A program made the translations under genes and the position numbers. Source: Parcubacteria group bacterium (GTDB lineage Bacteria; Patescibacteriota; Minisyncoccia; Moranbacterales; UBA2206). Taken from it: DNA of 64,000 nucleotides. This document shows, one piece after another, positions 20,545-52,454 of the stretch. Positions within the stretch are counted from its first letter, which is position 1; every line of letters begins with the position of its first letter. Location: NCBI GenBank assembly GCA_041674205.1, contig JBAYWF010000003.1, positions 47,221-111,220 on the forward strand, written 5' to 3'. The notes beneath the pieces were generated by a model. That model was not told the origin of the DNA. It was given only the letters and a program-made list of their open reading frames with translations, and did not search any database.

Positions 20545-21366
20545 TCAGGACTTAGCTCCTTCACTCCGTGTATTTTTAATTATCTGGCTTAATTTTTTAT
20601 GCAATTCCTGAGAAGCCGCTAGGAATGTAAAATTATCCTCGGCCCTATCCAGATGATTTGCATAATCAATCGGATTTCCAAAAAAATCGGTATAAATTCC
20701 ACCTGCCTCTTCGATGACAACTTGCTGGGCGACATTATCCCAAATTTTGCTGGTGCGGTTCAGGAAAGCCCCATATTTTCCTTTGGCAACCATCGCCACA
20801 TCAAAAGCGCTGTTGCTTGTCCTGAGATTACGGATGTTTAAAACAATTTCCGCCAATAGTTCGCATTCGTTCCTCGTAAACTCCGGATTTTCTTGATGGC
20901 CATCGATACCGTATGCCACCAAAGAATTTTTCAAATCAGCCTCCCGGCTAATCACAATTTTTTCTCCGTTGCAATATGCGCCGTGGCCTTTTTCCGCGAC
21001 ATAGATTTCCGAATAACTCGGCAAGGCGATGCCACCCGCGACCGGCACATCGTCCTCCAGCAATCCGACCATTATCCCATACAAAGGGACTCCGCTGGCA
21101 AAATTGCTCGTGCCGTCGATTGGATCGACAACCCAAGTCAGATTGGATTTCTTATTTATGACTCCGGCTTCCTCATCGATGATATTATGCGTTGGAAACC
21201 GTTCTTGTATTTTTTCCACTATCGCTTGGCCGATTTTCAAATCAGTCTCCGTCAGAATCTGGTTATTATCCTCCATCTTCGCAACCCCGGACACCTTGCC
21301 GAAGCTATTCCTGGCTATCCCAGAAACCTCCTCTAAAATTTCAACTATGAAATCACCGTATCCCAT
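20545..21366 (-). CDS. inositol monophosphatase family protein (SuhB/CysQ-like), core-genome copy
   Basis: WVVDPIDGTSNFASGVPLYGIMVGL metal-binding motif; about 75% aa identity to the cassette copy at 39709-40515. Confidence 0.9.
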   Translation of the reverse strand: MGYGDFIVEILEEVSGIARNSFGKVSGVAKMEDNNQILTETDLKIGQAIVEKIQERFPTHNIIDEEAGVINKKSNLTWVVDPIDGTSNFASGVPLYGIMVGLLEDDVPVAGGIALPSYSEIYVAEKGHGAYCNGEKIVISREADLKNSLVAYGIDGHQENPEFTRNECELLAEIVLNIRNLRTSNSAFDVAMVAKGKYGAFLNRTSKIWDNVAQQVVIEEAGGIYTDFFGNPIDYANHLDRAEDNFTFLAASQELHKKLSQIIKNTRSEGAKS

Positions 21367-30007: not shown

Positions 30008-30118
30008 ATAGTCTCCATCTTAGCCTAGAATCGGAGAATAATCAAGGATTTGGGACAAGCGGATCGGAATAATCTTTAAAGCTTAACTTCCCTGCGCATA
30101 TTACGGTTTTTTTATCTT

Positions 30119-31219
30119 TTATTTTTCAACACGCTTTAAAACTTTGACAATCCCCGCATATGCGTCGACTTCTATCAAATCCCCATCATGCAGGACTTGG
30201 GTCGCATTCTTAGTGCCCACGATACAAGGAATATTGAATTCCCGAGATACGATGGCGGCGTGGGAAAGCATGCCACCCTGGTTGGTGACTATGGCAGCTG
30301 CTTTTTTGCAAGCCATCATCAATTCCGGTCCGGTTGTCTCGACAATCAATATTTGTCCGCTTGCCATCGAACCTATGATTTCAATCCTTTCATTCTCATC
30401 CACGTCAAGAATATCGCTTTTGAGAACCTTTGCCGTTCCGCGAACCCTGCCCTTATTCGCGATATGGCCAACGATAGTGTTTTCTCCTGTTTTATCTTCC
30501 ATATTCCGTATGATTTTTTTAGCATCTTCGCCAAATAAAATCCGCATTTTATTATCAAGGAAGATTGCGACATAAGCTGTCCGCCTATCCCCTAATTGCT
30601 TCTGAACGACTTTTTCACCTTTAAAAAGCAGCAGGACCTCTTCAATGGAATAAAGTTGCAGGTCATTGGACGGTACGGTAAATTTTTTTGAAAGCTTGGC
30701 TATAAGCCTATGGAAATAACTGCTTTTTTCAAAAGACATCCTATTGATGAATCCCTTGGCTCTCAATCTGAAATCTCCAAAATCACCGAAGTTTTTTTCA
30801 ATATTGTTTTGCGCCCCATCGGCATAAAAAAATTCAGTTTTGGAATAAAAGAAATAAAACTGGGCTACGAGTTCTAGAAATTTTTTAACATCCTCCTGTT
30901 TTATATTTTGAGTTTCGATTTCCAACGTGTTTTTGAAGAAAATTTCCGATCTTTCCATATATTCCTCGAAGTTTTTTCTAAATCGTCCTATATCCGGTTT
31001 GCTTTTATAAAATCTCCCGCCTTCGCTAAGGGCAAGTCCTAGTTTTTGTTTGGAAATATATCTATCAAGTGTTTCGCCATCGAAAACCGCCAACAGATCC
31101 ATTGATCGGTAAAACTCAGAAAACAGCTCGAGCCCTAAAAAATAAGGCGCGCTGACTTTCCCGCCAAAAAGCCTTTGATAATTATCAAGGTCTATTTTAT
31201 TAATATTTTTTTCAACCAT
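30119..31219 (-). CDS. PEP-utilising enzyme mobile (phosphohistidine swivel) domain protein with uncharacterised N-terminal domain
   Basis: C-terminal about 90 aa ILIVETTGPELMMACKKAAAIVTNQGGMLSHAAIVSREFNIPCIVGTKNATQVLHDGDLIEVDAYAGIV is a PEP-utiliser swivel domain with the phospho-carrier His; N-terminal about 270 aa unassigned; AT-rich. Confidence 0.7.
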   Translation of the reverse strand: MVEKNINKIDLDNYQRLFGGKVSAPYFLGLELFSEFYRSMDLLAVFDGETLDRYISKQKLGLALSEGGRFYKSKPDIGRFRKNFEEYMERSEIFFKNTLEIETQNIKQEDVKKFLELVAQFYFFYSKTEFFYADGAQNNIEKNFGDFGDFRLRAKGFINRMSFEKSSYFHRLIAKLSKKFTVPSNDLQLYSIEEVLLLFKGEKVVQKQLGDRRTAYVAIFLDNKMRILFGEDAKKIIRNMEDKTGENTIVGHIANKGRVRGTAKVLKSDILDVDENERIEIIGSMASGQILIVETTGPELMMACKKAAAIVTNQGGMLSHAAIVSREFNIPCIVGTKNATQVLHDGDLIEVDAYAGIVKVLKRVEK

Positions 31220-31257
31220 ATATGAATATCATTAAAAAAAATAATCGTTTTTGTATT

Positions 31258-31695
31258 TTAGTTGTTAGCATTTGCCAGATAATCGCCTATGATTATTTTA
31301 TGATCAAACGCAAGTTCGTCCGGCAAGCCATCCAGCGGAAACCATTCGTATCCAAGGGCGTCATCACCGGCTTTTGGACTGCCTGAAATTGTCACAGCAT
31401 ATGCCATATCTATGACTTGTTTGGGATGCCTATTCGGTTTGCCGTAAACCCCGATAAGCTTGATCGACTCGACTGCGACGCCTAATTCCTCTTTGACTTC
31501 CCTTATGACGGATTCCTCCGTCGATTCATCCCATTCCACATATCCGCCAGGCAAAGCCCAAAAACCTTTGAACGGATTCGCGCCTCTCTTGATAAATAAA
31601 ATCCTATCATCTTTTATGATGACCGCGTCAATCGAAACGCCTCGATTGTTGAAGCGACCGCATTCAGGACATTGTTCATCGTTTGATAATTCCAT
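31258..31695 (-). CDS. Nudix hydrolase with N-terminal CxxC zinc ribbon
   Basis: CPECGRF ... GFWALPGGYVEWDESTEESVIREVKEELGV Nudix box. Confidence 0.85.
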   Translation of the reverse strand: MELSNDEQCPECGRFNNRGVSIDAVIIKDDRILFIKRGANPFKGFWALPGGYVEWDESTEESVIREVKEELGVAVESIKLIGVYGKPNRHPKQVIDMAYAVTISGSPKAGDDALGYEWFPLDGLPDELAFDHKIIIGDYLANANN

Positions 31696-31726
31696 TTTGT
31701 TTAAATAAAAATTATAGATTCGCAGA

Positions 31727-31987
31727 TCACAGAAACCAGTAATTGATGATGCCGAACGTGGTTATAATGGTAAAAATAATCGTCGTAATCAAAATCCCGA
31801 TTTGCCCGGCTTGTTTCCAGGCCTTCCATGATGAATATAGCCAAAACGGCTGGGCAAGCAAATTCATTATTAATCCATATTCCGGAAATTTTAACGAAGT
31901 CGCTATTTGCGCGCCGATAGTCAATCCGGGAAGGGCGAATTGGGCGACCTTATTGAATAATTTTCCTTTTGTTGCCGCTTCGTTCAT
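31727..31987 (-). CDS. small hypothetical membrane protein
   Basis: two TM helices; start moved to MNEAATKG (31987) because an attC-like L'/R' motif occupies the upstream part of the longer ORF. Confidence 0.4.
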   Translation of the reverse strand: MNEAATKGKLFNKVAQFALPGLTIGAQIATSLKFPEYGLIMNLLAQPFWLYSSWKAWKQAGQIGILITTIIFTIITTFGIINYWFL

Positions 31988-32157
31988 AAAATTTTTTAAA
32001 AATATTTTGTCTGACGCATCTGCATATCTGAAGTTTAATCCCGACTTTATCACCCAAATCTTAACATGATTAGGGACGCTTGTTAATAGACTGATTTGGA
32101 ATATTCACCAGGCTACGGGATTAAATTCAGGTGGAGCCATTAAGAATTTTAGCTTTT

Positions 32158-32570
32158 TTATATTTCGTTTTCTATGTTTCTAAAATAATTTTTTGCCTCC
32201 AACAATGATAAATTTTCTACCATATTTGATTTATTGACCCATTTAGCTTTAACGATGTCTTTAGCCGTAGGATGGATATGTTCTTGCTCGGATTTGAAAA
32301 GAAACATATAAGTATCGATAATGACCGGATTATCGTTAGCTGCTCGTCTCTTGTAGTTGGGCAATGTTTTTATCAAGGTCAGCTTTTTAATTCCTGCTTC
32401 TTCATAAATTTCCCGTTTCGCCGCATCAATGATATCTTCACCTTTTTCAATGCCTCCTTTTGGAAATCCCAAGCATCAACATCTTTCATTAAAACTAAAA
32501 CGACTTGATTTTTATTATTTACAACTATTCCTCCAGCACTATCAATTATTTTATAGTCGGTTTCATTCAT
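32158..32570 (-). pseudogene. Nudix hydrolase interrupted by a -1 frameshift in a G-run
   Basis: ORFs 32379-32570 and 32158-32472 together encode ...VLVLMKDVDAW | GFPKGGIEKGEDIIDAAKREIYEEAGIK; restoring one G in the GGG run at about 32468-32470 gives a contiguous Nudix box. Confidence 0.7.
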
Positions 32571-32707
32571 AGAGATTGATAAAAATTTGGGTGAAAGAAA
32601 TTTATCCTCTTGATTATTATTTCCCGAAAGCGAAAAAAAGTTTAGATCAAGATGGATTCCTATAACCGCGTATACAGGTGTTATGCGCTGTCGTAATTTT
32701 TTTCGTG

Positions 32708-33157
32708 TTAAAGCAGCCCCTCATTGATTAACTGGAATGATGATTTGCCGGTATGCTTTTTCGTAATCACCTCGCCTGGGTTTTTCAAAATGTCTTTTAT
32801 ACGATCGACTTGTTTTGGTGAAGTATTGCGTGGGATGTCCTTAAAGGCAAAATATTTTATTTTATCAGCCTCTGGATTCAGAACGATTTCTCCGCCGATG
32901 ACTTTGCAGATGTATTGGAACACAATCTCATCCTTATCTGGCTTGCTGTATACGCCTGTTAGCCGCTCAACAACCGTGTTGAATCCAGTCTCTTCTTTTA
33001 CCTCTCGAACGACGCATTCCCAAGGTGTCTCACCATGTTCAAGGGTGCCTCCGGGGAGATTCCACAAATCGCAATCAGTCCTATGGCAAAATAAAATACG
33101 GTTTTCATCGTCGAATATAGCCGCGAATACGCCAATTGTGAAAGTCGGTTTGGACAT
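32708..33157 (-). CDS. Nudix hydrolase
   Basis: WNLPGGTLEHGETPWECVVREVKEETGF Nudix box. Confidence 0.85.
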   Translation of the reverse strand: MSKPTFTIGVFAAIFDDENRILFCHRTDCDLWNLPGGTLEHGETPWECVVREVKEETGFNTVVERLTGVYSKPDKDEIVFQYICKVIGGEIVLNPEADKIKYFAFKDIPRNTSPKQVDRIKDILKNPGEVITKKHTGKSSFQLINEGLL

Positions 33158-33190
33158 TGTTTATTAGATAAAAAATTACGATCACATACA

Positions 33191-33340
33191 ACGTATGCGC
33201 ATCATCCGAAGTTGCACCATGGATTATTGATTAAATTTGTTAATATCGCTTTACTTGATTATATCACTAAACTTGCCATTTCGTCAGCGCAATTTGAGAG
33301 AAGAAATTTTGCACTCCTTGAAATATAATTACGCAAAATT
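33191..33340 (-). repeat. conserved about 150-bp intergenic module (copy 1), shared with 39503-39651; carries a promoter-like TGACGA-18-TATAAT on the minus strand
   Basis: about 85-90% identity to the 39503-39651 copy over GAAGTTGC.C..TGGATTA.TTGATTA.TTTGTTAATATCGCTTTACTTGATTATATCACTAAACTTGCC.TTTCGTCAGCGCAATTTG. Confidence 0.8.
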
Positions 33341-33403
33341 CCTGACTCGTCGTAACTATCATTAAATCGAAATCTGGACGTAGCCTAATAAGCTGTTTTG
33401 TAA

Positions 33404-34024
33404 CTATTTATTTTTGGCGATTAAAAAAATAATTCCCGTGTTTACATATTCTTGTATGGGATTTTCTTCAAGGACAAAATCCAGTATCTCAAATTTATGC
33501 TCAGAAAGCATGTCTTTTATTTCTTTTTCGCAGTAGTAAGAATAGAATTTTTTTGCGTTATCATATCTGTCGTCCGTGATTACTTTTTCGCCACTGCCTT
33601 TTTTTAAATTTATATATAATACGCCACTGGCTTTAAGCACCCTTTTCATTTCCTTCAGTGCTTTTAAGGCATCAACTTTATTCAGATGCAATAATGTGGC
33701 GCTGCACCAGACGCCATCGAACGATTTGTTCTTAAAATTTAAATCTAACATATTCATCACATGGAACTTGGCATCTGGGACGGATGATCGGGCTTTATCG
33801 ATCATTTTTTGAGAAAGGTCGATTCCAGTCGTAACGTATTTGTTAGAAGCAAAAAAATCCGTATCGCGACCAAAGGCGCAACCGATATCCAAAACGCTTC
33901 CATTTTTAGGCAGATACGAAATGAATTTGTCGAGCCAATCTTTGTTTTGCAAGTTCGTCGTGTTTTTAATGTATTCGTCGACATTTTGATCGTAGAAATT
34001 AATAGTATTTTTAATATAATCCAT
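33404..34024 (-). CDS. class I SAM-dependent methyltransferase
   Basis: motif I VLDIGCAFGRD and methyltransferase type-11 spacing. Confidence 0.85.
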   Translation of the reverse strand: MDYIKNTINFYDQNVDEYIKNTTNLQNKDWLDKFISYLPKNGSVLDIGCAFGRDTDFFASNKYVTTGIDLSQKMIDKARSSVPDAKFHVMNMLDLNFKNKSFDGVWCSATLLHLNKVDALKALKEMKRVLKASGVLYINLKKGSGEKVITDDRYDNAKKFYSYYCEKEIKDMLSEHKFEILDFVLEENPIQEYVNTGIIFLIAKNK

Positions 34025-34393
34025 AGATAATTACAAAAAGTTTATTGAGCGGAACCAGATATGCGGCGTTATGCGATGTGGCAAAAGCCGACTCCGATAA
34101 GAAAAAATTGGAAGATTGATTAAAAGTCGGGCTCTCTCTTCAAGTTTTTGCTACTTCTTTATTATATATCAACAGAAGAAAAGGGCAAAAATTCGGGTAA
34201 AAAATGAAATTCAAGTCCAGAAAATACAAGAGGGAATTTCATTTTTTCCTCATATTCGGTGTTGTGCGATGTAAATTTTTTATCTCAATATTTATTGAAC
34301 TAAACTCTGTTTTATTACTAAGAAAATTTGATTTTTGTTTTGGATTTTGGGCAGATGGGTCAGGGGTGAATGCCCAAAATTCAAAACTCCTTA

Positions 34394-35026
34394 TTAAGTT
34401 TTGTTCATCAATCTCAATATTTCCTTTGGGTTATTTGCCACCCTTGTATTACCAACCATACTTTTATCAAGTCCCCAGCCATAATCTACTAATATAATAT
34501 TATCATCATTTATACCAGCTTTTTTTGAAACTTCGTAATCAATAGCTCTATCGCCTATGGATACGATTTCATCTGATGAATAGTTATTCTCTTGTATCAA
34601 ACCTATCATCATATCGCTCTTGCGGGTTTTTTGGTCTGCTCCGCAATAAATTTTTTCGAATAAAATTGTTAGGCCAAATTTTTCTATTTTAGGCAGAATT
34701 TCATTACTATGGGAAGCAGACACCAGATATAATTTATATTTTGTAGCAAGCTCCTTTATCACATTTTCTATATCCTCAAAAACACCATGCTCCATTTTGA
34801 CAATTTCTCTTAAATAAATAGAATTGGCTTCTTCAAAATCTTTCTCTTGGATGCCTAAATTTTTCAAACACTCTTTGTAATTATAGCCATAAACAACCCT
34901 AAATTCTTCCAATGTTTTTGGGCAAGAAACTTTGAAGCGCCTACAAATCATTTTATAAACTTCAAAGACGCTCACAAAAGAGTCTATTATCACACCGTCA
35001 TAATCAAATATAATCGCTTTTATCAT
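34394..35026 (-). CDS. HAD-IA family hydrolase (phosphatase)
   Basis: MIKAIIFDYDGVIIDS motif I DxD, motif II S/T, C-terminal GDRAIDYEVSKKAGI motif IV. Confidence 0.85.
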   Translation of the reverse strand: MIKAIIFDYDGVIIDSFVSVFEVYKMICRRFKVSCPKTLEEFRVVYGYNYKECLKNLGIQEKDFEEANSIYLREIVKMEHGVFEDIENVIKELATKYKLYLVSASHSNEILPKIEKFGLTILFEKIYCGADQKTRKSDMMIGLIQENNYSSDEIVSIGDRAIDYEVSKKAGINDDNIILVDYGWGLDKSMVGNTRVANNPKEILRLMNKT

Positions 35027-35167
35027 AAAAAATACAAATTAAATAGTTTACGTAGCCTCAGCGGAGAAAACACCTTTTCCCCCTCTATAAATAAATTAAA
35101 AATCAAATTTTCTGTCCTTAATTAAATCACAAATCTAAAAATTACCACCAAGATAAAAAAATTATTT

Positions 35168-35244
35168 CGCCGAACGTTTCGCAATATCCGACGTTCGCCT
35201 TAGCGAATGTGGCTTTAGCCCTTGCGGATATTGAGTGTTAGCTG
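35168..35244 (-). repeat. attC-like palindromic site (R'' CAGCTAAC - AC - L'' TCAATATCCGC ... L' GCGAATATCCGAC-like ... R' GTTCGGCG)
   Basis: 9-bp L''/L' complementarity CAATATCCG/CGGATATTG, inner palindrome CGAACGT/ACGTTCG; lies between the IMPase-3 and HAD cassettes. Confidence 0.55.
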
Positions 35245-35329
35245 ATGTATTAAAAATTCTTTTCGCTTTTGTCGTTAGACAAAAGATTTAATTGGGGCAA
35301 ATTTATTTTTTTAATCCTTCCGCTGTGTT

Positions 35330-36157
35330 TTATTTCTTTACAATTCCCAACAACTGCTTAACAATTTTAGCGTTACCTGCAACATAATCTCCTTCATAAA
35401 CATCGCATTCTTTTCCGTCTAAATTAGTCATTATCGCACCGGCTTCAGCGGCAATAAGGCTGCCGGCTGCAACATCCCATGGTTTTTGTTTCAATCTGAT
35501 TAAACCGTCAATTCGACCGCATGCCAAATAACAAAACTCGGCAGCCATTCCACCTTTTCCAAATGTTTCATCAACAATGTGGGTGCTGTCGTAAAATCCA
35601 AAATATTTAACATTGGGAATTGAATTCATTATTCTTTTATCAAGTCCACCAATTTCATCATCTTCACTTCCAGGATAAGTTGAGTAAGTTATAATTGCTT
35701 TTGATAAATCATAGGCTTTGCTTGTGTGTATAGGTTCATTGTTTAAGGTTGCGCCCTTTCCTTTCTCAGCAACAAACATTTCATCTGTTTTTGGTAAATA
35801 GATGACTCCCAAAATAATTTCGCCTTTATATTCTAGCCCAATGGACACCGAAAAAGTATTTCGCTTAGCAATGTAGTTATTTGTACCATCAATTGGATCA
35901 ATAATCCATTTATATTCTGAAATTAACACACTTTTACCTAGTTCTTCACCTAAAAAAGCATGCTTGGGAAAAGATACTTTAATTATTTCAACAATTTTTT
36001 GTTCTGATGCTCTGTCTATTTTTGTTGTCGGATTAGCATGTACGTCATATTGAATTTCGTCAGATTTTACATTGTCAATATTTTCCATCAAAAATCTTCC
36101 AGCTTCTTTGGCTGCTTTTATTGCGGTTTGTCTGAGATTGTTTTCGTTGTTTGTCAT
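35330..36157 (-). CDS. inositol monophosphatase family protein (third, divergent paralog)
   Basis: WIIDPIDGTNNYIAKRNTFSVSIGL metal-binding motif; 275 aa. Confidence 0.85.
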   Translation of the reverse strand: MTNNENNLRQTAIKAAKEAGRFLMENIDNVKSDEIQYDVHANPTTKIDRASEQKIVEIIKVSFPKHAFLGEELGKSVLISEYKWIIDPIDGTNNYIAKRNTFSVSIGLEYKGEIILGVIYLPKTDEMFVAEKGKGATLNNEPIHTSKAYDLSKAIITYSTYPGSEDDEIGGLDKRIMNSIPNVKYFGFYDSTHIVDETFGKGGMAAEFCYLACGRIDGLIRLKQKPWDVAAGSLIAAEAGAIMTNLDGKECDVYEGDYVAGNAKIVKQLLGIVKK

Positions 36158-36228
36158 GGCCTTGGATTAAAAAAATAAATTTGCCTAGATTGAATGCCCG
36201 CTAAGGCCGAAAATAATTTTTTAATATT

Positions 36229-36357
36229 TCAGCTAACGTATCCAAATATCTGAAGTTTGCTGGAGTGTAACGAAAGCAAATTTGGGAGAGAAAATTTTTC
36301 TTACCTTTGAAATTTAAAAGTGAAAAATTTTTGAACCAGATATTTGGTGTTGTCTGA
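36229..36357 (-). repeat. attC-like site (R'' CAGACAAC - AC - L'' CCAAATATCTG - 78-nt centre - L' CAGATATTTGG - ATAC - R' GTTAGCTG)
   Basis: perfect 11-bp L''/L' inverted repeat about 85 nt apart; R boxes fit RYYYAAC/GTTRRRY loosely; stop codon of upstream Nudix 12 nt before R''. Confidence 0.65.
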
Positions 36358-36386
36358 TGTTTTGTCTGCCGTCGTTTTTAAAATCA

Positions 36387-36833
36387 CTAAGCCGCCCAGC
36401 CGAACTCGCCATAATGCACATTCTTGTTAATATTCTCTAGGGCAAGTTTTACTTCTGGTAAAATGTTGTTCGGAAGACCGTCCATATTATACCATTTAAG
36501 CTCGTCACATTTATCAAGTTCCATATTGGTAATATTACCAGCCCATTTTTCAGTACGAAGATAAATATCAAAATATTCGCGATCAGATGCTAATCGATGC
36601 ATAACATGAACCACCTCGAGGTCTTCCGGACTTACCTTAATCCCAGCTTCTTCACTGGCTTCTCGGATAATGCATTGTTTCGTTGTTTCACCACCATCAA
36701 GATGTCCTGCCACCAAGCTATAATTGCCGTCTTGATAGCCAGTGTTGAAGCGTCTGAGAAGTAAAACTTGCCCGTCCTTAATCAGCACAAGGTAGGCGGC
36801 GACGTATGGTTTAAATCTTTCTTTATCAGACAT
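36387..36833 (-). CDS. Nudix hydrolase
   Basis: GNYSLVAGHLDGGETTKQCIIREASEEAGIK Nudix box. Confidence 0.85.
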   Translation of the reverse strand: MSDKERFKPYVAAYLVLIKDGQVLLLRRFNTGYQDGNYSLVAGHLDGGETTKQCIIREASEEAGIKVSPEDLEVVHVMHRLASDREYFDIYLRTEKWAGNITNMELDKCDELKWYNMDGLPNNILPEVKLALENINKNVHYGEFGWAA

Positions 36834-36869
36834 AGTAATGTTGGATTATTAATTAGGCTGACAAAATTT

Positions 36870-37094
36870 CAGATAACGATTAAGAATATCTGAAGTCCTG
36901 CGCTTTTGCTTCTATGCACAAAATCTTAAATATTCCTGACATTTTGTTAATTTTATTATACCCCAAATTACAGCAAAACTGAAAAGCGCGGGATCTGCCT
37001 GCCTGCCTGCCGGTAGGCAGGGGAGAGAAAAATCTATCCCCCTTTTAGTTTTAATTGTGGTAAATTTTTAGAACCTCATATTTGGTGTTCTGCG
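36870..37094 (-). repeat. attC-like site (degenerate; R'' CGCAGAAC ... R' GTTATCTG) with internal GC hairpin CCTGCC/GGCAGG
   Basis: same ACATC-R''-AC-L'' ... L'-spacer-R'-AAA layout as neighbouring sites but weaker L pairing. Confidence 0.45.
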
Positions 37095-37102
37095 ATGTTT
37101 AA

Positions 37103-37624
37103 TTAAGCGGCTTTTAACAACCGCAACATTTTTGTAGGCCATTCAGTATTGCCCCGTTCTATTTCTTCGTGGAAAAATTTTATCATGAGCTGTTTTGGCT
37201 CGTCGGAAAAATCACAATGCTCAATTTCAGGCCAAACTTCTTTATACCACAATCCAATATTGTCATGGCGTAAATTGCACGCACCGCCGTTTGGATCGCG
37301 TTCAATAAACAAAATCCGATTTATATGGTTAGTGACTGAAGCACCAAGACACTGGATGCAAGGCTCAAGCGTACTGTAAAGAGAAATAGCCTTACCATGC
37401 TTCCAAGCTTCACTCAAAAGCTGACTATTTTTTATTATCAAACTATTTTCAGCATGATTGACGAAGGATTTTTGTTTATTGATTTCGTTGCCAGCAGTGT
37501 CAACGATTTTTTCATCAATAGCCAAAACAGCACCCACGGGATAATTGCCAGCCTTGTAAGTTTCACGGGCAATACTGATGGCCGCCTCAAAACATTGTTT
37601 ATCAAATAGACTTAATTCTTTCAT
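37103..37624 (-). CDS. CMP/dCMP-type zinc deaminase family protein
   Basis: HAENSLI (HxE) and TLEPCIQC (PCxxC) zinc-binding motifs of the cytidine/deoxycytidylate deaminase fold. Confidence 0.75.
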   Translation of the reverse strand: MKELSLFDKQCFEAAISIARETYKAGNYPVGAVLAIDEKIVDTAGNEINKQKSFVNHAENSLIIKNSQLLSEAWKHGKAISLYSTLEPCIQCLGASVTNHINRILFIERDPNGGACNLRHDNIGLWYKEVWPEIEHCDFSDEPKQLMIKFFHEEIERGNTEWPTKMLRLLKAA

Positions 37625-37691
37625 GAGATGTAGCTTAATTCAATTTCACTTAACGTTTAGGAATATCAGAAGTTTTTGGCTCTCTTTATTA

Positions 37692-38297
37692 TTATTTGGG
37701 ACACTTTTCGTAGAATACCTTAAAACTTTTTTCTTCGCCATATTTCGTACTCATGCCATTGAGCAATTTTTGAAGGTCTATATCGAAAAATTTTCTATGC
37801 GAATAAGCAGGGTCGCCAAGCGTAACAACAACATTTTTATTTTTTACAGTGACAGAATCTACCACGCAGCTATGGCCATAATTGACCCCGCTTCCAGGTT
37901 TAGCGTAAGCAGCCATGTTAAACGAAACAATAATGTCATTACCAGCTTTTAAGTTTTCGCATAGAAAATTTTTTATGTCGCCTATCTTCGAAGGGTAATG
38001 ACGCTCAACAGCCAGAGATATTTTATGCTTCTTCAAAAATTGCGGTATTTTATAGACCCACGTGCCATAGCCAAGTCTGTCTTGCGGCAGTTTTCCCGCA
38101 ACTTTCATTTTTATATTGAACAATCGTTGATCTTCTGGGGCAATAACAACGCCCAAATCTTTGGCCATTTCATCCTGCGAAATCAAATTCAACCCGCGGC
38201 GCAACATTACCCATTGAATACAGCAAGGCAAGCAACAATATTTTTGCTGGGTAAGCGGGATATAACTTGGCATTATGCGGACTTTATTTGTTGTCAT
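37692..38297 (-). CDS. putative papain-fold cysteine peptidase (C39-like)
   Basis: candidate catalytic Cys in LTQQKYCCLPCCIQWV (Gln upstream as oxyanion residue) and His in NYGHSCVVDSV, resembling the C39 HFVVL motif; weak. Confidence 0.35.
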   Translation of the reverse strand: MTTNKVRIMPSYIPLTQQKYCCLPCCIQWVMLRRGLNLISQDEMAKDLGVVIAPEDQRLFNIKMKVAGKLPQDRLGYGTWVYKIPQFLKKHKISLAVERHYPSKIGDIKNFLCENLKAGNDIIVSFNMAAYAKPGSGVNYGHSCVVDSVTVKNKNVVVTLGDPAYSHRKFFDIDLQKLLNGMSTKYGEEKSFKVFYEKCPK

Positions 38298-38394
38298 AAA
38301 ATTCCCTGGATAATAATTTCAAAATCTGAAGCGTGCAGCATTTTAATGGGACGTAGTGGGATCAGATTACCATATCCTGCGATACAAGCCTATT

Positions 38395-38799
38395 TTAACT
38401 CTCAACTTCTCGCAGGAACTCTTTTAGAGGTTCTACTATGTCGGTCAAATCGACATATTCAATGATTTTATCAGCGACCCCCTTGGCAGTGTCCCGAAGC
38501 TGGACCCCTTTATTGATTATTATGATGATCTTTTTGCCGGCACCAAAGGCGATTCCCGCCTCAAGAGCCCGTCCGGTAGATGAGGTTGATAGGTCGATCA
38601 ATAAAGCATCGCACTCAAGGACTTCTTCCTTGGCGCGATCCATCAATTCCCGTGGATCATAAAACATCTTTTGATAATTTTCAACGTCACGGATAAAACA
38701 AAAGTCATCGAACCCGGCTTCTTTTACCAAGTTGCACAAGTTTTCTATTTCGGATTTATTTTCACCCTCTTTGAAGGGGGCGGTGATAAAAATTTTCAT
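38395..38799 (-). CDS. nucleoside 2-deoxyribosyltransferase-like (PF05014/DUF4406-type Rossmann) protein
   Basis: N-terminal KIFITAPF (cf. KIYLAGPF) and C-terminal DALLIDLSTSSTGRALEAGIAFGAGKKII with the conserved Glu. Confidence 0.6.
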   Translation of the reverse strand: MKIFITAPFKEGENKSEIENLCNLVKEAGFDDFCFIRDVENYQKMFYDPRELMDRAKEEVLECDALLIDLSTSSTGRALEAGIAFGAGKKIIIIINKGVQLRDTAKGVADKIIEYVDLTDIVEPLKEFLREVES

Positions 38800-38827
38800 A
38801 GCGAGAGAGTTAAAAATAGACTTATTT

Positions 38828-38916
38828 CACATAACGTTTCTCGATATCCGACGTTTCAATGAAGTGAAACGAATTGAAATGTGGCTTTAGTCCTCGCGGA
38901 TATTGAGTGTTAGATG
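38828..38916 (-). repeat. attC-like site (R'' CATCTAAC with embedded TAA stop - AC - L'' TCAATATCCGCG ... inner hairpin CGTTTCA/TGAAACG ... L' CGGATATCGA - GAAAC - R' GTTATGTG)
   Basis: R'' is a perfect RYYYAAC; L''/L' 9-bp complementarity; stop codon of Nudix 38910-39488 lies inside R''. Confidence 0.65.
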
Positions 38917-39461
38917 ATGTTTTTGTGTGACACTATTCCACTTAGATATAATAACAATGGCATCAGAGAAGTGCCATCACTAATCTCATTATTAGCGATC
39001 AGTTCTTTTACTTCACTTAATGAAAGCCAATGGATTTCCTTGACTTCGTCTGTGTCGATTTCGGCCTGCTCGCCAGTTTCAACATTACCTAAAATTATGT
39101 GAACATTTTGATTCGACATTCCGTTCGAAGGATTGTAAGAGTAAAGAAGTTTTAATGCCCTCGCTTTAAAACCAACTTCCTCCATTACTTCTCGTTCAGC
39201 GGCTAATAAAATATCTTCACCATTTTCAACGCCACCAGCAGGCAATTCCCATTCAATCTTTTGCGTGGTATAGCGCAAAGACTTGATAAAACAAATTTCG
39301 CTTTTGGCGTTTAGCAATAATACGGCTATTGACTCCTTCGGGTAATCAAGTTGATGATATTTTTCTATAATTTTTCCAGAAGGCATTAAAACTTTGTCGA
39401 TATATAGATTTATCCATTGGCTTTCATAGATTGGTTTTCGATCTAATCGTTTTGGTAGCAT
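38910..39461 (-). CDS. Nudix hydrolase (ADP-ribose pyrophosphatase-like)
   Basis: WELPAGGVENGEDILLAAEREVMEEVGFK Nudix box; start set to ATG MLPKRL (39461); longer ORF begins with GTG at 39488. Confidence 0.85.
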   Translation of the reverse strand: MLPKRLDRKPIYESQWINLYIDKVLMPSGKIIEKYHQLDYPKESIAVLLLNAKSEICFIKSLRYTTQKIEWELPAGGVENGEDILLAAEREVMEEVGFKARALKLLYSYNPSNGMSNQNVHIILGNVETGEQAEIDTDEVKEIHWLSLSEVKELIANNEISDGTSLMPLLLYLSGIVSHKNII

Positions 39462-39496
39462 ATATTTATAATTTAGAGAGTGTCGCACAAAAATTT

Positions 39497-39681
39497 CATC
39501 TAACGTATCGGCACATGCGAAGTTGCGCCGTGGATTAATTGATTATTTTGTTAATATCGCTTTACTTGATTATATCACTAAACTTGCCGTTTCGTCAGCG
39601 CAATTTGGGTTAAAAAAAATTTGCATTCCTTATAAAATCTAATTGCGCAAATTTTTTGAACCGCATGTGCCGTGTTATCGG
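39497..39681 (-). repeat. attC-like site containing the conserved promoter module (R'' CCGATAAC - AC - L'' GGCACATGCG ... L' CGCATGTGCC - GATAC - R' GTTAGATG)
   Basis: perfect 10-bp L''/L' complementarity with a sequence unlike the L boxes of other sites (covariation); R' is a perfect GTTRRRY. Confidence 0.65.
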
Positions 39682-39708
39682 ATGTAAAATTTTTTTAATT
39701 CACTTTTA

Positions 39709-40515
39709 TCAAATAGATTGGGATTTAACAACCTCCAATAACTTTGCATGCAGGGCTGGAGACGACGCAAGAAAGGTGAAATTGTCTTGTGGTTGAGAAA
39801 GGGCATTTGAATAATCAATCGTATTTCCGAAAAAATCTGTATAAATTCCGCCCGCTTCCTCAATAATTATCTGCTGGGCAACATTATCCCATATTTTGCT
39901 CGTGCGATTTAAAAAAGCACCATAATTTCCTTTGGCTACCATAGCAATATCAAAAACACTATTACTGCTTCTTAAGTTTCTAATATTCAAAACTATTTCA
40001 GCTAGCAGCGCACACTCATCTCTTGTAAACTTCGGATTTTCTTGGTGACCATCAATTCCATACGCTACAAGCGCTTTTTTCAAATCGCCTTCTTTGGTAA
40101 TGCAGATTTTTTCGGAATTACAATATGCTCCTTGCCCTTTCTCGGCCACATAAATTTCGGAAAAGTTTGGCAAAGCTAGTCCACCAGCAATCGGAACATT
40201 ATTTTTTAACAATCCAAGCATTATCCCGTACAGCGGCGTTCCGTTGGCGAAGTTGCTAGTGCCGTCAATTGGATCAATGACCCATGTAAAAACTGACTTT
40301 TTATCAATCACTCCAGCTTCCTCATCAATGATGTTATGCTCCGGAAATTTGGCTTGGATTTTTCCAATCAATAATTTACCGATTTCTAAGTCAGTTTCCG
40401 TAAGTACCTGATTATTATCATCTTCCTTGGTGATGCCAGCAACTTTGCCAAAACTTTTTCTTGCAACGTCAGAAGCTTCTTTCAGAGATTGAGTAATGAA
40501 ATCCTTGTATTCCAT
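39709..40515 (-). CDS. inositol monophosphatase family protein, cassette-borne paralog of 20545-21366
   Basis: WVIDPIDGTSNFANGTPLYGIMLGL; lower GC than the core copy; flanked by 35-bp inverted repeats 39672-39708 / 40521-40556. Confidence 0.9.
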   Translation of the reverse strand: MEYKDFITQSLKEASDVARKSFGKVAGITKEDDNNQVLTETDLEIGKLLIGKIQAKFPEHNIIDEEAGVIDKKSVFTWVIDPIDGTSNFANGTPLYGIMLGLLKNNVPIAGGLALPNFSEIYVAEKGQGAYCNSEKICITKEGDLKKALVAYGIDGHQENPKFTRDECALLAEIVLNIRNLRSSNSVFDIAMVAKGNYGAFLNRTSKIWDNVAQQIIIEEAGGIYTDFFGNTIDYSNALSQPQDNFTFLASSPALHAKLLEVVKSQSI

Positions 40516-40548
40516 AATGTTAAAAAAGTGAATTAAAAAAATTTTATT

Positions 40549-40633
40549 TCCGATAACTCGTTTATGCGCGAAATTTGTTTCGTATAATGCTCGATAATTT
40601 GTTTGTTATGCTAAATTATTGCGCGTTATCCGG
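40549..40633 (-). repeat. attC/attI-like boundary site between murJ and first cassette (CCGGATAAC ... GTTATCGG)
   Basis: R''-like CCGGATAAC-GC-GCAATAATTT and R' GAGTTATCGG separated by about 70 nt, immediately after the murJ stop. Confidence 0.4.
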
Positions 40634-40689
40634 ATTTATTTTAATCCCTAAAACTTGCCTGCCGCTTTTTTCTAGAGTATGTACATCTG

Positions 40690-49285: not shown

Positions 49286-51127
49286 TCATCCGACCTGCTT
49301 TGCGATTTCTTTCGGGGTTATGATCGGCAGTTCCACGATGAATTGCGAACCTTTACCTTCGCCTTCCGACTCCACCCAGATGCGCCCGCCGTTGCCTTCG
49401 ATGAAGCCTTTGCACAGATACAAACCCAGTCCGGTGCCGCCGGCATTCAGGCGGCTGGTATCCAAGCCTCTCGAAAATTTAGCGAAAAGATGCGGGATTT
49501 CCTCTTTGGGAATGCCGATGCCGGTATCGGAAATGGTGATCCTGACCACCGGCCCGCTGATGTTTATGCTTTTTTCCTCCGGATTGCTGGTGACTGGCGG
49601 GACATAGCCGGATTTTTCCGCCTGTGTCAGAGCCAAGGTGACGCCGCCCGCCGGGCAATATTTCACCGCGTTATCCACCAGATTGGAAACCGCCTCGCGG
49701 ATGACCTTGCCGTCGATGGTGAGCTCCGGCAATGGGGTTTCCGGTTTTTCATATTTCAAATACAGGCCGTTATCCTTGGCTTTGATGAACAAGGTGTCCA
49801 TCACCTCCTGGCAGAGGTCTTCGATTTTCCATTTGGCGAAATCATATTTCATACCGCCGGATTCGATTTTGGAAGCGGCGAAAAGATCCTCGATCAAAAG
49901 ACCCATATTCTTGATGACAGTCAGGGTTTTGCCCAGCGCGTCCTTCTGCCCGGAAGATATTTCCCCATAGGAGCCTTCTTCGACCATCGACACATACCCC
50001 CGGATGCTGGTAAGCGGTCCGCGCAGGTCATGGGAAGCTCTCGCGATGAAGTCGGTTTTGGCCTGGTCGAGTTTTTTGAGTTCGACGTTAGCTACCGCCA
50101 GTTTGTCGGAAGTTTTCTGCAACTCGTCTTTCTTTTCTCCGAGTTCTTTGTTGGCGATGAACAGTTTCACGTTCTTGACGTTGATCTCCCGGTTGGCGGT
50201 TTGCAGTTCTTCCTTCTGTTCCACTTCTTTCTTGACCGATTTGATGAGATAGTAGCCGAAGACAAAAGACAAAAACAAAGTGATGCCGGTCAGGACCCGG
50301 TTGGTGTTGTTCCTGATAAAAGCGAATTGGGAAGCGATCAGGATGACCTGGGTGGCCACTAAGGCCTGGGCTCCCAGGAGCTTGATGTTGAAAGCTTTGA
50401 ATTTAACGATGAGGTATCCAAGGAAAAGAATGAAAACTGTCATTCCAAATAAGCCATATTGTTCAATCTCAAAAGCATACAGATAACCTTTTTCATCAAG
50501 ATAGCTAGCTAGAAATCCCGCAATAAAAAAAGAAAGGAAAAATAATAATAATCCTATAGAAGCATACCTAATTTTTTTCCTTTCATCTCCCCACGCTTTT
50601 CGATAGCCAAAAAAAGAAAAAATTATAGTTAAAAAAGCAAAGAATAATTCCAAAAAAAATATATAATAATCATAGATTTTTACAATCCCCGGACCAACCA
50701 TTGGCTCACAAATAGGCATATAAAATCCACTAGAATTTTTCAAATTAAACAAAATCGCCGGCATAATTATCATAGCTAGAAATATTTTAAATCCAATATT
50801 AATATCCTTTTTGTTGATAAAAACATAGATAAAATAAAAACACAAAAGAAAAAGCAAGGGATCTAAAATTCCAAGCAGAGACCAGAAAAACATAATCAAA
50901 CTACTATCCACATTTGTCCAAATAATAAGATTGAAAAATGTCCACAAGAAAAAAACAGCTGAAAGGGACAAAAGAATTTTACTCGCCAAATTCCTACTTC
51001 TATAAAAAACAAAAAAACCAAATAGCAAAGCAATCAATGCTGTTGGGATATGTGAGTAGTATAAAAGATGCGGAACTGAGTTAGAAAAAACTAAATATAA
51101 TGGAGCAGGTATGTCAGTACAAAACAT
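49286..51127 (-). CDS. sensor histidine kinase with large polytopic N-terminal membrane domain
   Basis: HisKA H-box ASHDLRGPLTSIRGYV; HATPase_c N/G1/G2 boxes (DNAVKY, DTGIGI, GGTGLGL); about 10 N-terminal TM helices; no response regulator adjacent. Confidence 0.85.
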   Translation of the reverse strand: MFCTDIPAPLYLVFSNSVPHLLYYSHIPTALIALLFGFFVFYRSRNLASKILLSLSAVFFLWTFFNLIIWTNVDSSLIMFFWSLLGILDPLLFLLCFYFIYVFINKKDINIGFKIFLAMIIMPAILFNLKNSSGFYMPICEPMVGPGIVKIYDYYIFFLELFFAFLTIIFSFFGYRKAWGDERKKIRYASIGLLLFFLSFFIAGFLASYLDEKGYLYAFEIEQYGLFGMTVFILFLGYLIVKFKAFNIKLLGAQALVATQVILIASQFAFIRNNTNRVLTGITLFLSFVFGYYLIKSVKKEVEQKEELQTANREINVKNVKLFIANKELGEKKDELQKTSDKLAVANVELKKLDQAKTDFIARASHDLRGPLTSIRGYVSMVEEGSYGEISSGQKDALGKTLTVIKNMGLLIEDLFAASKIESGGMKYDFAKWKIEDLCQEVMDTLFIKAKDNGLYLKYEKPETPLPELTIDGKVIREAVSNLVDNAVKYCPAGGVTLALTQAEKSGYVPPVTSNPEEKSINISGPVVRITISDTGIGIPKEEIPHLFAKFSRGLDTSRLNAGGTGLGLYLCKGFIEGNGGRIWVESEGEGKGSQFIVELPIITPKEIAKQVG

Positions 51128-51169
51128 TTATATTTTTACCTTTAAATAATTAAGTTTCAAATTATTATA

Positions 51170-51667
51170 TTATACATTCATGTATTTTTTATTTTTTTTG
51201 AAATATTCTGGATTTTTCCAATCATTGCCCGTAATTATCTTGCGGCAATTCTTTGATCCACAAAGACAGGGCATCTTATATTCCGGGTCAGTCACTGAAA
51301 ATCCATAGTCATGCGTTAGTTCTTCTCCAGATTTAACATTCTTTATTAAAATCAAACTTCCTTTTTTGTCGTATCCCATATTTGGTTCACAACTATGATT
51401 ACCGAGCCATGCTATCGGCATATAATTCATATTGGGAACTGCATAAAAACCATCTTGGACTTGAGTCCCAAAATGGCCTACAACTTCTTTTGTTATTCTG
51501 TCTAATTTTTCATATACATCCTTACCAAAAAACTTATCAGAATATGAGAAATCATGATCTATAATAATTGTACCTTTTTTTAATGATCTTAAGGCAAACA
51601 AACCTGCTTCACCAGGAAGCATTTTTGATGGCTTAACTCCTATTATTACAGGGGGGAATTTAAACAT
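51170..51667 (-). CDS. SET-domain protein (putative protein-lysine methyltransferase)
   Basis: GLFALRSLKKGTII, NHSCEPN, ELTHDYG and post-SET CLCGSKNCRK are the four SET-domain signature blocks. Confidence 0.8.
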   Translation of the reverse strand: MFKFPPVIIGVKPSKMLPGEAGLFALRSLKKGTIIIDHDFSYSDKFFGKDVYEKLDRITKEVVGHFGTQVQDGFYAVPNMNYMPIAWLGNHSCEPNMGYDKKGSLILIKNVKSGEELTHDYGFSVTDPEYKMPCLCGSKNCRKIITGNDWKNPEYFKKNKKYMNV

Positions 51668-51671
51668 ATTA

Positions 51672-52454
51672 TTATTTTATTAATTTAATTTTTAGATTAA
51701 AATTATTCGCACAATCAATTATATGTTTATTTACACCTGGCGGATAACTCCACCAATAAAAATCCTCATCATCAGTTTGATCTTCCGGATATAAACGCAC
51801 TATCAATGGCCTTAACCCAAATTCTTTCTCCACTCTTTCAATATTCGGCAAAACTATCTTTTCCACAAATCCAGCTTCTCCTTTTTCCCTGTCATCGAAA
51901 GAAAAAGTCTCAAACAAAATTCCGTGAGCAATCAGATGAAGCATCGTGTAATAATAATAACCTGAAACATCTTGAACTTTTTTTCTCCATTCCGGATTGT
52001 CATATATTTCCATTTCATAGCCGGAAATTTTGCAAAGATTGTGATGGAAATCAACCAGTTTTTCTCCATTTTTCAAAACACACTCATTCAATTTCTTTTT
52101 TTCATTCGTATGGAAATCCATCACATCGACAGTCGCTTTTTCGCCATTTTCCAATGTCACACGCAAACGCCCAAGCCCTTTCTTTTCTTCATTAAAAGAA
52201 ACGAAAATATCCTCGCTCTCCTCCCAAGCCAATGGCTCCGCCCCGACATATTTGGCGCATTGGTAGAGAAACACAAAACCATTATCTGGCGAAGCGACTT
52301 GCCGGTTCAAAACCGCCCTCGGCATATCTTTAAAGGGCGGCAAGAACTTATCCCCCAACTCCTCCTCGATCCTCTTCCTCAGCTCGACATCCGCCCAGCG
52401 TTTTTTCAGTTCTTCCCTGGCTTCGTCCAAGGACACATAGATACCATCCGCCAT
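51672..52454 (-). CDS. hypothetical protein, co-transcribed upstream partner of the SET-domain gene
   Basis: 260 aa, 4-nt gap to the SET gene, no motif recognised. Confidence 0.5.
   Translation of the reverse strand: MADGIYVSLDEAREELKKRWADVELRKRIEEELGDKFLPPFKDMPRAVLNRQVASPDNGFVFLYQCAKYVGAEPLAWEESEDIFVSFNEEKKGLGRLRVTLENGEKATVDVMDFHTNEKKKLNECVLKNGEKLVDFHHNLCKISGYEMEIYDNPEWRKKVQDVSGYYYYTMLHLIAHGILFETFSFDDREKGEAGFVEKIVLPNIERVEKEFGLRPLIVRLYPEDQTDDEDFYWWSYPPGVNKHIIDCANNFNLKIKLIK

Follow-up and report, generated by a model that had tools for sequence, protein, structure and literature searches.

The closest described parallels of the element considered here are the sedentary chromosomal integrons and the CALINs, groups of attC sites that have no integrase of their own (Cury et al. 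2016, PMC4889954). The element lies in a 64,000-nucleotide stretch, hereafter the window, of a Parcubacteria group bacterium (assembly GCA_041674205.1, contig JBAYWF010000003.1, positions 47,221 to 111,220 of the forward strand). At a probability of about 0.7, we read positions 30052-40686 of the window as an integron-like cassette array, recombinase-less in the window and to that extent CALIN-like, which is inserted between the murJ and lepA genes of a Moranbacteria-related parcubacterium and bears a metabolic cargo. Like integrons and CALINs, it consists of single-gene cassettes on one strand, each followed by an imperfect palindrome with an invariant AAC...GTT and an inner stem of variable sequence. 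Further shared features are a crossover at GTT, a stop codon inside the R'' box in some cassettes, a start of the array at an attI-like site, a divergently oriented recombinase gene beside attI in related genomes, and a cassette content that varies between strains. A CALIN is called from at least two attC sites, and our own scans found four intact and about eight half or degenerate ones; the adjacent intI gene with an IntI-specific domain that marks a complete integron is absent.

There are also clear departures from the integron pattern. The element is not a classical integron, there being no intI in the window and no IntI-specific domain in the recombinase of its relatives; that recombinase, at 270 aa, is without the roughly 43-aa domain needed by classical IntIs, the archaeal ones included (PMC9668308). 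The sites themselves add ACATC and GAAAT flanks, the elements GGTTC and AACTTC, and a CCCAAAT loop motif, and some of their loops hold promoter-like elements. Published lists of phyla with integrons omit Patescibacteria (PMC8618304), and IntegronFinder 2.0 recovers almost nothing in Bacteroidetes (PMC9024848). Our literature search, incomplete in its coverage, returned no account of such arrays in bacteria of the Candidate Phyla Radiation (CPR), nor of integron-like elements in Bacteroidota.

A second group of parallels comes from the Xer/dif systems, among which we considered the single-recombinase systems XerS/difSL, XerH/difH and archaeal XerA, as well as the CTX phage and the Acinetobacter pdif modules (PMC7399989). 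The recombinase of the related loci stands about as near to XerA of P. abyssi as to the integron integrase VchIntIA and passes a XerA model, and the conserved site next to its gene is a dif-like imperfect palindrome of roughly 11+7+11 bp. The placement of a dif-type site beside the recombinase gene is also the arrangement of difSL and xerS. The CTX phage integrates into dif as a folded hairpin, which resembles the use of hairpins that we envisage here. In contrast to the integrative mobile elements exploiting Xer (IMEX) and the pdif modules, which are organised otherwise, the present system builds up entire arrays of single-gene cassettes, with a separate hairpin site for every cassette.

The murJ-lepA block and its attC-like sites

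Alignment of the junctions delimits an inserted block of ~10.6 kb (about 30052-40686) between the murJ stop codon and the conserved lepA leader CTTGATTATTCTCCG. Its GC content is ~0.36 versus ~0.5 elsewhere: per kilobase, values are 0.32-0.41 at 30-41 kb versus about 0.45-0.54 on either side, and by gene 0.32-0.45 in the array versus 0.52 for MurJ and 0.51 for LepA. The window LepA falls in a cluster of at least 90% identity with proteins of Candidatus Moranbacteria, and in one such genome (locus L006, GCA_030679995.1, LepA likewise at least 90% identical) murJ is followed by a 45-bp gap and then lepA, the site being empty. In another relative (L005, from a Logan Sequence Read Archive run) the same interval holds a different, five-gene array. 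Because the site is empty in L006 and differently filled in L005, the whole block is a strain-variable insertion. Homology between the window and L005 runs from murJ through a ~90-nt site ending in ...AAACGAG/TT and breaks off exactly there, near 40555.

The drop in GC from about 0.5 to about 0.36, together with the presence of one cassette homologue on a contig binned as Melioribacteraceae, could alternatively point to a chimera, produced in assembly or binning, of this low-GC block with a Parcubacteria backbone. This we consider scarcely credible: L005, an independent assembly, has the murJ-adjacent entry site, then cassettes, then lepA; both junctions of the block are continuous with conserved flanks; and the same proteins occur on one 318-kb contig in NCBI, JGI and ENA.

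Within the genuine insertion that we prefer, the array begins at an attI-like entry site. A site conserved upstream of CPR recombinase genes, CGTATAGAAACGAGTTN4GAAAT (consensus CGTATAGAAACGAG/TTN4GAAAT), is matched just once in the window, at 40570 and with 4 mismatches. In 29 of 33 CPR loci this site, with no more than 6 mismatches, precedes the start of the recombinase gene by 81-172 nt, its left arm often directly repeated upstream, and control segments differ from it by at least 7 mismatches. The window copy adjoins murJ, with no recombinase gene beside it, and resembles the site that separates the recombinase gene from the first cassette in locus L001. From this site onward the block contains the following features; Pfam matches were judged against the gathering score, and substrate-level calls against NCBIfam equivalog cut-offs. 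The genes named in the first-pass annotation are all found where it placed them, on the minus strand.

40546-40637 (-): attI-like entry site, right after the murJ stop, ending in ...TTTCGCGCATAAACGAG/TTATCGGAAAT; the first cassette starts at GTT
39709-40515 (-): cassette 1 (IMPase2), IMPase-family phosphatase, 268 aa; PF00459 (Inositol_P), 169 bits
39493-39685 (-): intact attC-like site, 193 nt; L box 11/11 in the pair scan, duplex energy -23.1, both halves matched by the covariance model
38910-39488 (-): cassette 2 (Nudix5), Nudix hydrolase, 192 aa, NudE/ADP-ribose-pyrophosphatase-like at family level; PF00293, 68 bits
38824-38920 (-): intact attC-like site, 97 nt; covariance model R1, 60 bits, E 2e-12; pair scan
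38395-38799 (-): cassette 3, protein resembling nucleoside 2-deoxyribosyltransferase (NDT-like), 134 aa, weakly assigned to PF05014; then a truncated 5' half-site
37692-38297 (-): cassette 4, C39-like protein, 201 aa, weakly assigned to PF13529
37640-37676 (-): 3' half-site with no matching 5' half; repeat family D1, covariance model 11.7 bits, intergenic
37103-37624 (-): cassette 5, cytidine deaminase (CDA)-fold nucleoside or tRNA-adenosine-type deaminase, 173 aa; PF00383 (dCMP_cyt_deam_1), 55 bits
36863-37101 (-): composite or degenerate attC region, 5' half 37060-37101 and 3' half 36863-36899, L boxes non-complementary
36387-36833 (-): cassette 6 (Nudix4), Nudix hydrolase, 148 aa; PF00293, 60 bits
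36226-36360 (-): intact attC-like site, 135 nt; pair scan 11/11
35330-36157 (-): cassette 7, IMPase-family phosphatase, 275 aa; PF00459, 193 bits
35164-35248 (-): intact attC-like site, 85 nt; covariance model R1, 57 bits, E about 1e-11
34394-35026 (-): cassette 8, HAD-IA hydrolase, 210 aa; PF13419 (HAD_2), 94 bits
34041-34275 (-): two partnerless 5' half-sites (34201-34275 and 34041-34082) around a stretch without an open reading frame (ORF); repeats, motif and covariance model
33404-34024 (-): cassette 9, class I S-adenosylmethionine (SAM)-dependent methyltransferase, 206 aa; PF13649 and PF08241 (Methyltransf_25/11), 76 bits each
33188-33310 (-): 3' part of an attC of the type of 39493-39685 (87% identical), with the same promoter-like element; repeat D4
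32708-33157 (-): cassette 10 (Nudix3), Nudix hydrolase, 149 aa; PF00293, 75 bits
32652-32694 (-): 5' half of an attC-like site; motif and covariance model
32158-32570 (-): cassette 11 (Nudix2), frameshifted Nudix, 63-aa and 104-aa ORFs; PF00293, 47 bits on the C-terminal ORF
31727-32053 (-): cassette 12, small membrane ORF without a family; no Pfam match
31258-31695 (-): cassette 13, Nudix hydrolase, 145 aa; PF00293, 73 bits
30119-31219 (-): phosphoenolpyruvate (PEP)-utilizer mobile-domain protein, 366 aa; PF00391, 89 bits; GC 0.395

The intergenic gaps contain two repeat families, which are the halves of imperfect palindromes. On the coding (minus) strand their layout is ACATC-N4-AAC-A-(11-nt L'')-GGTTC ... 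loop ... AAC-TT-C-(L')-AAAC-GTT-N4-GAAAT. The motif of the 5' half, GTGTTN4GATGT, occurs eight times in the window, always within 32678-39685, and its total match count was reached by 0 of 100 shuffles. A first, strict pair scan, which required complementarity of the N4 segments of R'' and R', found one site; this requirement was dropped, the N4 of R' being already part of the cassette that follows. With both flanks and L''/L' complementarity required, four intact sites were found versus about 0.2 expected from shuffles, while about eight half or composite sites follow the NDT-like, C39-like, deaminase, HAD, methyltransferase, Nudix3 and Nudix2 genes. Over 1.1 Mb of comparison loci the same scan gave 87 pairs versus 6 in 0.5 Mb of shuffled sequence, and a site scan by duplex energy gave 119 versus 21 shuffled. 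A covariance model built from 24 loop-trimmed sites served as support only, since it recovers short-loop sites whole and splits long-loop ones. It detected two short-loop sites at 57-60 bits and the others as halves, and its 13 best minus-strand matches at 30-41 kb are all intergenic. No match to an attC-type family was found by Rfam in the window. By motif, pair scan and covariance model alike, the attC-like sites of the window are confined to this block, which bears out the label of array that had been given to it.

The AAC and GTT are invariant in 24 of 24 aligned sites. The L boxes vary widely in sequence among sites, yet each site is self-complementary; the attC of Nudix4, for instance, has CCAAAT/ATTTGG in the window versus AAGAAT/ATTCTT in L001, that is, compensatory changes. 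Such variable yet self-complementary boxes suggest that the sites would act as folded hairpins, as in integrons or in CTX-phage integration. The degenerate sites retain traces of related ones, the 3' half at 36863-36899 matching the L' of the Nudix4 attC in L001 and the stretch 33188-33310 being matched by locus L095 at 87%. With roughly two in three sites half or degenerate, and with a frameshift in one Nudix gene, the observations indicate an array that is partly decaying.

In most attC-like sites the loop forms two small sub-hairpins with a motif, YCNCCCAAAT(T), situated between them (e.g., at 36270-36290 and 39600-39612 of the window), and on account of this shared motif the loop is not simply variable. 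On the coding strand of the aligned sites it is the 3' arm that has the extra unpaired bases (e.g., 36226-36360), the asymmetry consisting of a 4-nt spacer, AAAC or ATAC, versus 1 nt, and of a TT bulge before L'. In the canonical attC-aadA7 the extra base of the coding strand belongs to the 5' (L'') arm, so that the present sites may have an inverted polarity.

The behaviour of the genes between these sites argues that they are real cassettes of a mobile pool. Five of the window cassettes recur in other arrays with other neighbours, at 82-95% DNA identity, and in every case the match extends over the single cassette alone, ending at GTT or at the attC end. Nudix4 recurs in L001-L003 (87%), where it is the first cassette beside the recombinase gene, and in L089/L090 (86.7%), which is another array. 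IMPase2 recurs in L004 (2903-3798, 88.6%) in a match bounded by the cassette ends, its neighbours there being acetyltransferase, Aminoglyc_resit, M23 and SLOG genes. The NDT-like cassette is found at 95% in L005 and at 82% in L092/L093. The C39-like cassette matches L095 6973-7612 at 84.6% (L095/L096), with a different Nudix gene following it, and the small membrane ORF matches L005 10513-10813 at 92%, directly after the NDT-like cassette, from which it is 6 kb apart in the window. The homology of Nudix4 between the window and L001 starts exactly at GTTATCTG and ends at the attC end; because identity begins precisely there, the crossover can be placed at or beside the invariant GTT, as in integrons.

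One of these cassettes also hints at where cargo may come from. IMPase2 is 73% identical in protein to the non-array IMPase of the window (20545-21366, minus strand), and because of this identity its probable source is a core gene in some related lineage. Its L004 copy likewise matches the gene at 20545-21366 at 73% in DNA, and a syntenic IMPase is present in L006. L004 itself (Ga0172380_10011157; NCBI protein MFA7421873.1) is a 9.3-kb contig binned as Melioribacteraceae with a CPR-type array that includes IMPase2, which implies either a binning error or a cross-phylum transfer of cassettes. The same array has a GNAT acetyltransferase and an Aminoglyc_resit (PF10706) gene, and the latter may be a resistance-type cassette in this system.

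A more conventional explanation would be an ordinary island or operon of locally duplicated metabolic genes, with the palindromes as terminators or REP-like (repetitive extragenic palindromic) repeats. All genes of the block do share one strand, like the rest of the window, most of the sites are degenerate, and no recombinase gene is nearby. Against this stand the recurrence of single cassettes with other neighbours, the end of homology at GTT and the empty site of L006; identity among the Nudix paralogues is no more than 25-38%, terminator-like sites show no enrichment (7 versus 7.9), and the same family of sites is tied to a recombinase gene in 29 of 33 CPR loci. This explanation is therefore largely refuted, and we leave it only a very slight chance beside that of a cassette array.

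As regards the surroundings, nearly all genes of the window are on the minus strand, and the GC skew is negative throughout. The sole outcome of Rfam and tRNA scans of the window was tRNA-Lys at 18147-18220; close to the array they revealed no tRNA that could have been an integration target. A phage DNA search gave no match. On its lepA side the insertion ends in ...GTCCCAAATC, directly before the conserved lepA leader.

The recombinase of related loci

In L001-L003, a gene for a 270-aa tyrosine recombinase is divergent to the adjoining Nudix4 cassette. The L001 protein passes the NCBIfam model NF040815 (recomb_XerA_Arch, "site-specific tyrosine recombinase/integron integrase") at 222.8 versus 220, and scores 206.6, in two stretches, against the integron-integrase model TIGR02249, under the cut-off of 265. 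Among PDB sequences its best match is VchIntIA (154 bits), followed by P. abyssi XerA (145 bits). It aligns with VchIntIA over 7-181/8-185 and 192-270/239-317, with about 43 aa missing; because the alignment skips IntIA residues 186-238, we regard the IntI-specific domain as absent from it. In the work of Smyshlyaev et al. (PMC8138268) the family goes under the name of the "Cand" Xer-like group.

A scan of GTDB species genomes for this recombinase provided 80 loci. In many of the CPR ones, attC-like sites are found upstream of the recombinase gene and on the opposite strand, the two being divergent. About half of the recombinase-bearing CPR contigs (L007-L037, L046, L074) end no more than 700 bp upstream of the start, at or just past the attI-like site; these ends might be assembly breaks arising from population variation in the first cassettes. 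A sister Moranbacteria genome (L087, GCA_016182385.1, a 318,080-bp contig) has a small upstream array with attC sites at 8029-10000, with a cation-efflux gene and a 93-aa ORF. This array further contains an ORF-less, GC-rich hairpin unit and a truncated attC abutting dnaE.

As some 100-170 bp separate the recombinase gene of the relatives from the same attI/dif-like site, at which cassettes start, we propose that the window cassettes might be moved in trans by the short Xer/IntI-like tyrosine recombinase of the lineage. In such a scheme, an Xer-type recombinase and a dif-like attI would form the platform of the lineage, and the window array would represent a secondary copy of the entry site with cassettes and without a recombinase. 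More broadly, we consider it an even wager that CPR/Patescibacteria, and apparently Flavobacterium, carry a widespread, undescribed integron-like capture system with a short Xer-type recombinase free of the IntI domain and a dif-like attI. This system would be a living intermediate between Xer/dif and integrons, of which the window block is a secondary array.

If the link to the recombinase holds, it would bear on how single-strand hairpin recombination arose from Xer-type recombinases, since hairpin-bounded cassettes would apparently be handled by an enzyme without the IntI-specific insertion. The acquisition of that insertion is said to have been the key step. Escudero et al. 2016 (PMC4792948) discuss integron integrases as an example of a smooth evolutionary transition among tyrosine recombinases. 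A practical implication is that standard integron detectors, which require the IntI domain, would miss a whole class of cassette arrays in metagenomes.

In Flavobacterium (L038 12944-20599, L059 13145-20691, L081 11469-17505; also L044, L047, L048 and L062), we observed short homologues of the recombinase (37-46% identity) that are equally without the IntI insertion. These loci have an attI-like site (...CTATAAACTAG/TTAC...) and same-strand arrays of small ORFs on the strand of the recombinase gene, the reverse of the CPR arrangement. Each of the ORFs ends in an attC-like site of ~140 nt (N4-AAC-A-GCGGTTTGGCGCAA...GCCGCGGCAC-GTT).

Cassette cargo and the wider cassette pool

The first-pass annotation had described the cargo of the array as dominated by nucleotide and sugar-phosphate housecleaning enzymes, and the inventory on which this rested is largely sound. 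In Pfam annotation of the cassette ORFs, the gathering scores are exceeded by all five Nudix genes, one of them frameshifted, by both IMPases, and by the HAD phosphatase, the SAM methyltransferase and the CMP/dCMP-type deaminase. The listed genes are all present, although the small membrane ORF at 31727-32053 and the PEP-utilizer gene at 30119-31219 had been omitted. The ORFs of the NDT-like and C39-like proteins exist, but both assignments fall below the Pfam gathering scores. The former scores 23.1 with Nuc_deoxyrib_tr (PF05014), under 28.8; its top PDB sequence match is a CMP N-glycosidase (4jen) at a marginal E of 0.05, and JGI labels one cluster member "nucleoside 2-deoxyribosyltransferase". 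The latter scores 21.9 with Peptidase_C39_2 (PF13529), under 24, and has no match among PDB sequences.

The array proteins parallel the housecleaning Nudix enzymes (MutT, NudE, ADP-ribose pyrophosphatases) in that the Nudix box (GX5EX7REUXEEXGU) is kept in five of five Nudix genes, all of which are above the PF00293 threshold; they differ in falling below the equivalog thresholds. The top NCBIfam match of Nudix5, whose gene has its stop codon inside the R'' box, is NudE at 63 bits (cut-off 169), and Nudix4 has 34 members in its 90% cluster. The frameshift in Nudix2 can be read directly, with ...VDAWDF in frame 0 and GFPKGGIEKGE... in frame 2; the N-terminal part of the gene is at 32379-32570 and the C-terminal part at 32158-32472. 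A likeness to IMPase and HAD phosphatases is similarly evident in the catalytic motifs, WIIDPIDGT and WVIDPIDGT in the two array IMPases and the N-terminal FDYDGV of the HAD-IA protein. The latter passes TIGR01549 (31.4 versus a cut-off of 23.3), the sole NCBIfam model to be passed, at subfamily level. NCBIfam does not resolve the IMPases into SuhB, HisN or CysQ types, and the one at 35330-36157 is 30% identical to both other window IMPases. The zinc motifs HAEN and EPCIQC are present in the translated deaminase, whose closest PDB relatives are TadA enzymes (TadA equivalog 49.5 versus a cut-off of 150). The true start of the small membrane ORF is probably near 31987 (86 aa), and a 3' half-site lies before it at 32001-32037.

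Nudix genes make up five of the 13 array ORFs versus two of the 62 elsewhere in the window (Fisher p=0.0013). An origin by tandem duplication was considered and ruled out: the array Nudix genes are not local duplicates, because they are only 25-38% identical to each other. We found no prior description of several divergent Nudix genes carried as mobile cassettes. A second Nudix-rich array is represented by L089/L090, with five Nudix genes and a methyltransferase among nine genes. The idea of a Nudix set common to this array and the window was rejected, only Nudix4 being shared and the others at most 34% identical. In L089 a SET-domain gene lies just past the array.

To these arrays can be added two samples of the wider pool. 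Among 80 ORFs of 20 other CPR arrays, Pfam identified five SAM methyltransferases, two Nudix and two HD proteins, and one each of IMPase, histidine phosphatase, SLOG, MsrA, MsrB, SDR, Vut_1, DNA methylase and others. The second sample rests on the attC type of 39493-39685, in which a loop of ~100 nt is conserved; a 19-mer from it, GTTTAGTGRTATAATCAAG, finds 63 metagenome contigs (L098-L160). A Nudix box is present in three of the 182 ORFs adjoining these sites (L111, L121, L125), and Pfam annotation of 150 of them gave four N6_N4 DNA methylases, three each of MutH-like, MFS, Nudix and methyltransferase proteins, as well as Bro-N/KilA-N (phage-like) proteins and flanking housekeeping genes.

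The loop of this attC type is also of interest for expression. The promoter-like sequence CTGACG-18-TGnTATAAT occurs in two attC loops on the minus strand, at 39598-39569 and 33287-33258, just upstream of Nudix5 and Nudix3, respectively. The element, with a strong extended -10, points at the next cassette and is conserved in L021 (5245-5443) and L060 (8948-9137). We regard some cassettes, at least, as probably transcribed from promoters in attC loops.

Several of our results weigh against the reading of the block as a metabolic cassette array served by the recombinase of the lineage. Only four of the about 12 window sites are intact. The 96% pairing of L boxes is circular, the sites having been chosen for complementarity, for which reason the excess over shuffles was used instead, and the use of the sites as single-strand hairpins is itself a prediction from their sequence. 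A tyrosine recombinase is absent from the 64-kb window, as judged by Pfam on the plus strand and low-GC candidates at 49-59 kb and by a tblastn search with the one of L001; that such a gene occurs elsewhere on the 318-kb contig of the window is presumed solely from a sister genome. In L087 the gene lies beside miaA, in a housekeeping context, and the family is very large and conserved in Patescibacteria (6224 matches at E<1e-30, about 60-65% identity); the protein may primarily be a chromosome-dimer Xer recombinase. Promoter-like sites are not enriched overall (40 versus 34±6). None of the array proteins reaches an NCBIfam equivalog cut-off (e.g., mutt 45.8 versus 97.9), which bears on substrates and on the housecleaning role. 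Finally, the Nudix share of the wider pool, about 2-3% in the two surveys, equals the genomic background (2/62), and because of this equality the Nudix richness is a property of particular arrays, not of the cassettes of the lineage in general.

The functional claims of the first-pass annotation accordingly need qualification. The housecleaning or scavenging role is a prediction from family membership, no protein having an equivalog match. That genes of this kind circulate as cassettes in the lineage agrees with the mobility of the cassettes, five of which recur elsewhere, but a pool dominated by such enzymes was not observed (Nudix 2/80 and 3/150). Likewise, the comparative survey of related cassette content that had been suggested turned up a second Nudix-rich array, in L089/L090, against a pool at background. 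A "known expansion" of Nudix, HD and HAD hydrolases in small-genome episymbionts had also been invoked; our literature search found no paper documenting Nudix expansion in CPR. The contrast with usual integron cargo, on the other hand, is upheld. About 24% of environmental integron cassettes have a Pfam hit, the enriched categories being defence, toxin-antitoxin, VOC enzymes, antimicrobial resistance and secreted proteins (PMC10661359), whereas nearly every gene of the window array is a recognisable small enzyme with a Pfam family.

An alternative view of the same genes is that they serve anti-phage defence or conflict, not metabolic housecleaning. In PADLOC, four of the Nudix proteins match PDC-S07, a candidate system of one gene (E 5e-9 to 3e-16), and the methyltransferase cassette matches the mad2 methyltransferase domain. 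Domains of the Nudix, deaminase, NDT/SLOG-like and methyltransferase kinds often serve as effectors or in immunity, and chromosomal integrons are known reservoirs of defence systems. Moreover, the wider pool beside the same attC type includes DNA methylases, MutH-like nucleases and Bro-N/KilA-N proteins, and integron cassettes are reported to be enriched in defence genes (PMC10661359; also bioRxiv 10.1101/2024.07.02.601686). However, the PADLOC matches of the Nudix and methyltransferase proteins are at the level of generic domains, and the HAD, deaminase, NDT-like, C39-like and PEP-utilizer proteins have none in that scan, which left out the two IMPases. No multi-gene defence architecture is visible in the array, and the 73% identity of IMPase2 to a core IMPase points to ordinary metabolism. 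Defence strikes us as an unlikely role for these cassettes. Judging from the protein families, the cargo most likely comprises accessory enzymes that hydrolyse or modify nucleotides and sugar phosphates for a nucleotide-scavenging episymbiont.

Read as metabolic cassettes, these genes would mean that ultra-small episymbiotic bacteria, whose genomes are usually thought static and streamlined, swap ordinary small enzymes as single-gene cassettes, and that individual arrays can stack many divergent Nudix hydrolases. The array would then provide a concrete group of accessory enzymes for nucleotides and sugar phosphates in bacteria that depend on nucleotide scavenging.

Two neighbouring regions may be mentioned in addition. 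The PEP-utilizer gene (30119-31219), with no attC detected adjoining it, closes the inserted block and is part of the segment that L006 lacks. Farther along the window, no attC-like pairs were detected at 50000-60000, a second low-GC stretch (0.31-0.42) that holds both non-array Nudix genes (56570-57034, plus strand, and 59382-59774, minus strand). It also contains a SET-domain gene (51170-51667), several family-less ORFs and the only plus-strand genes of the window.

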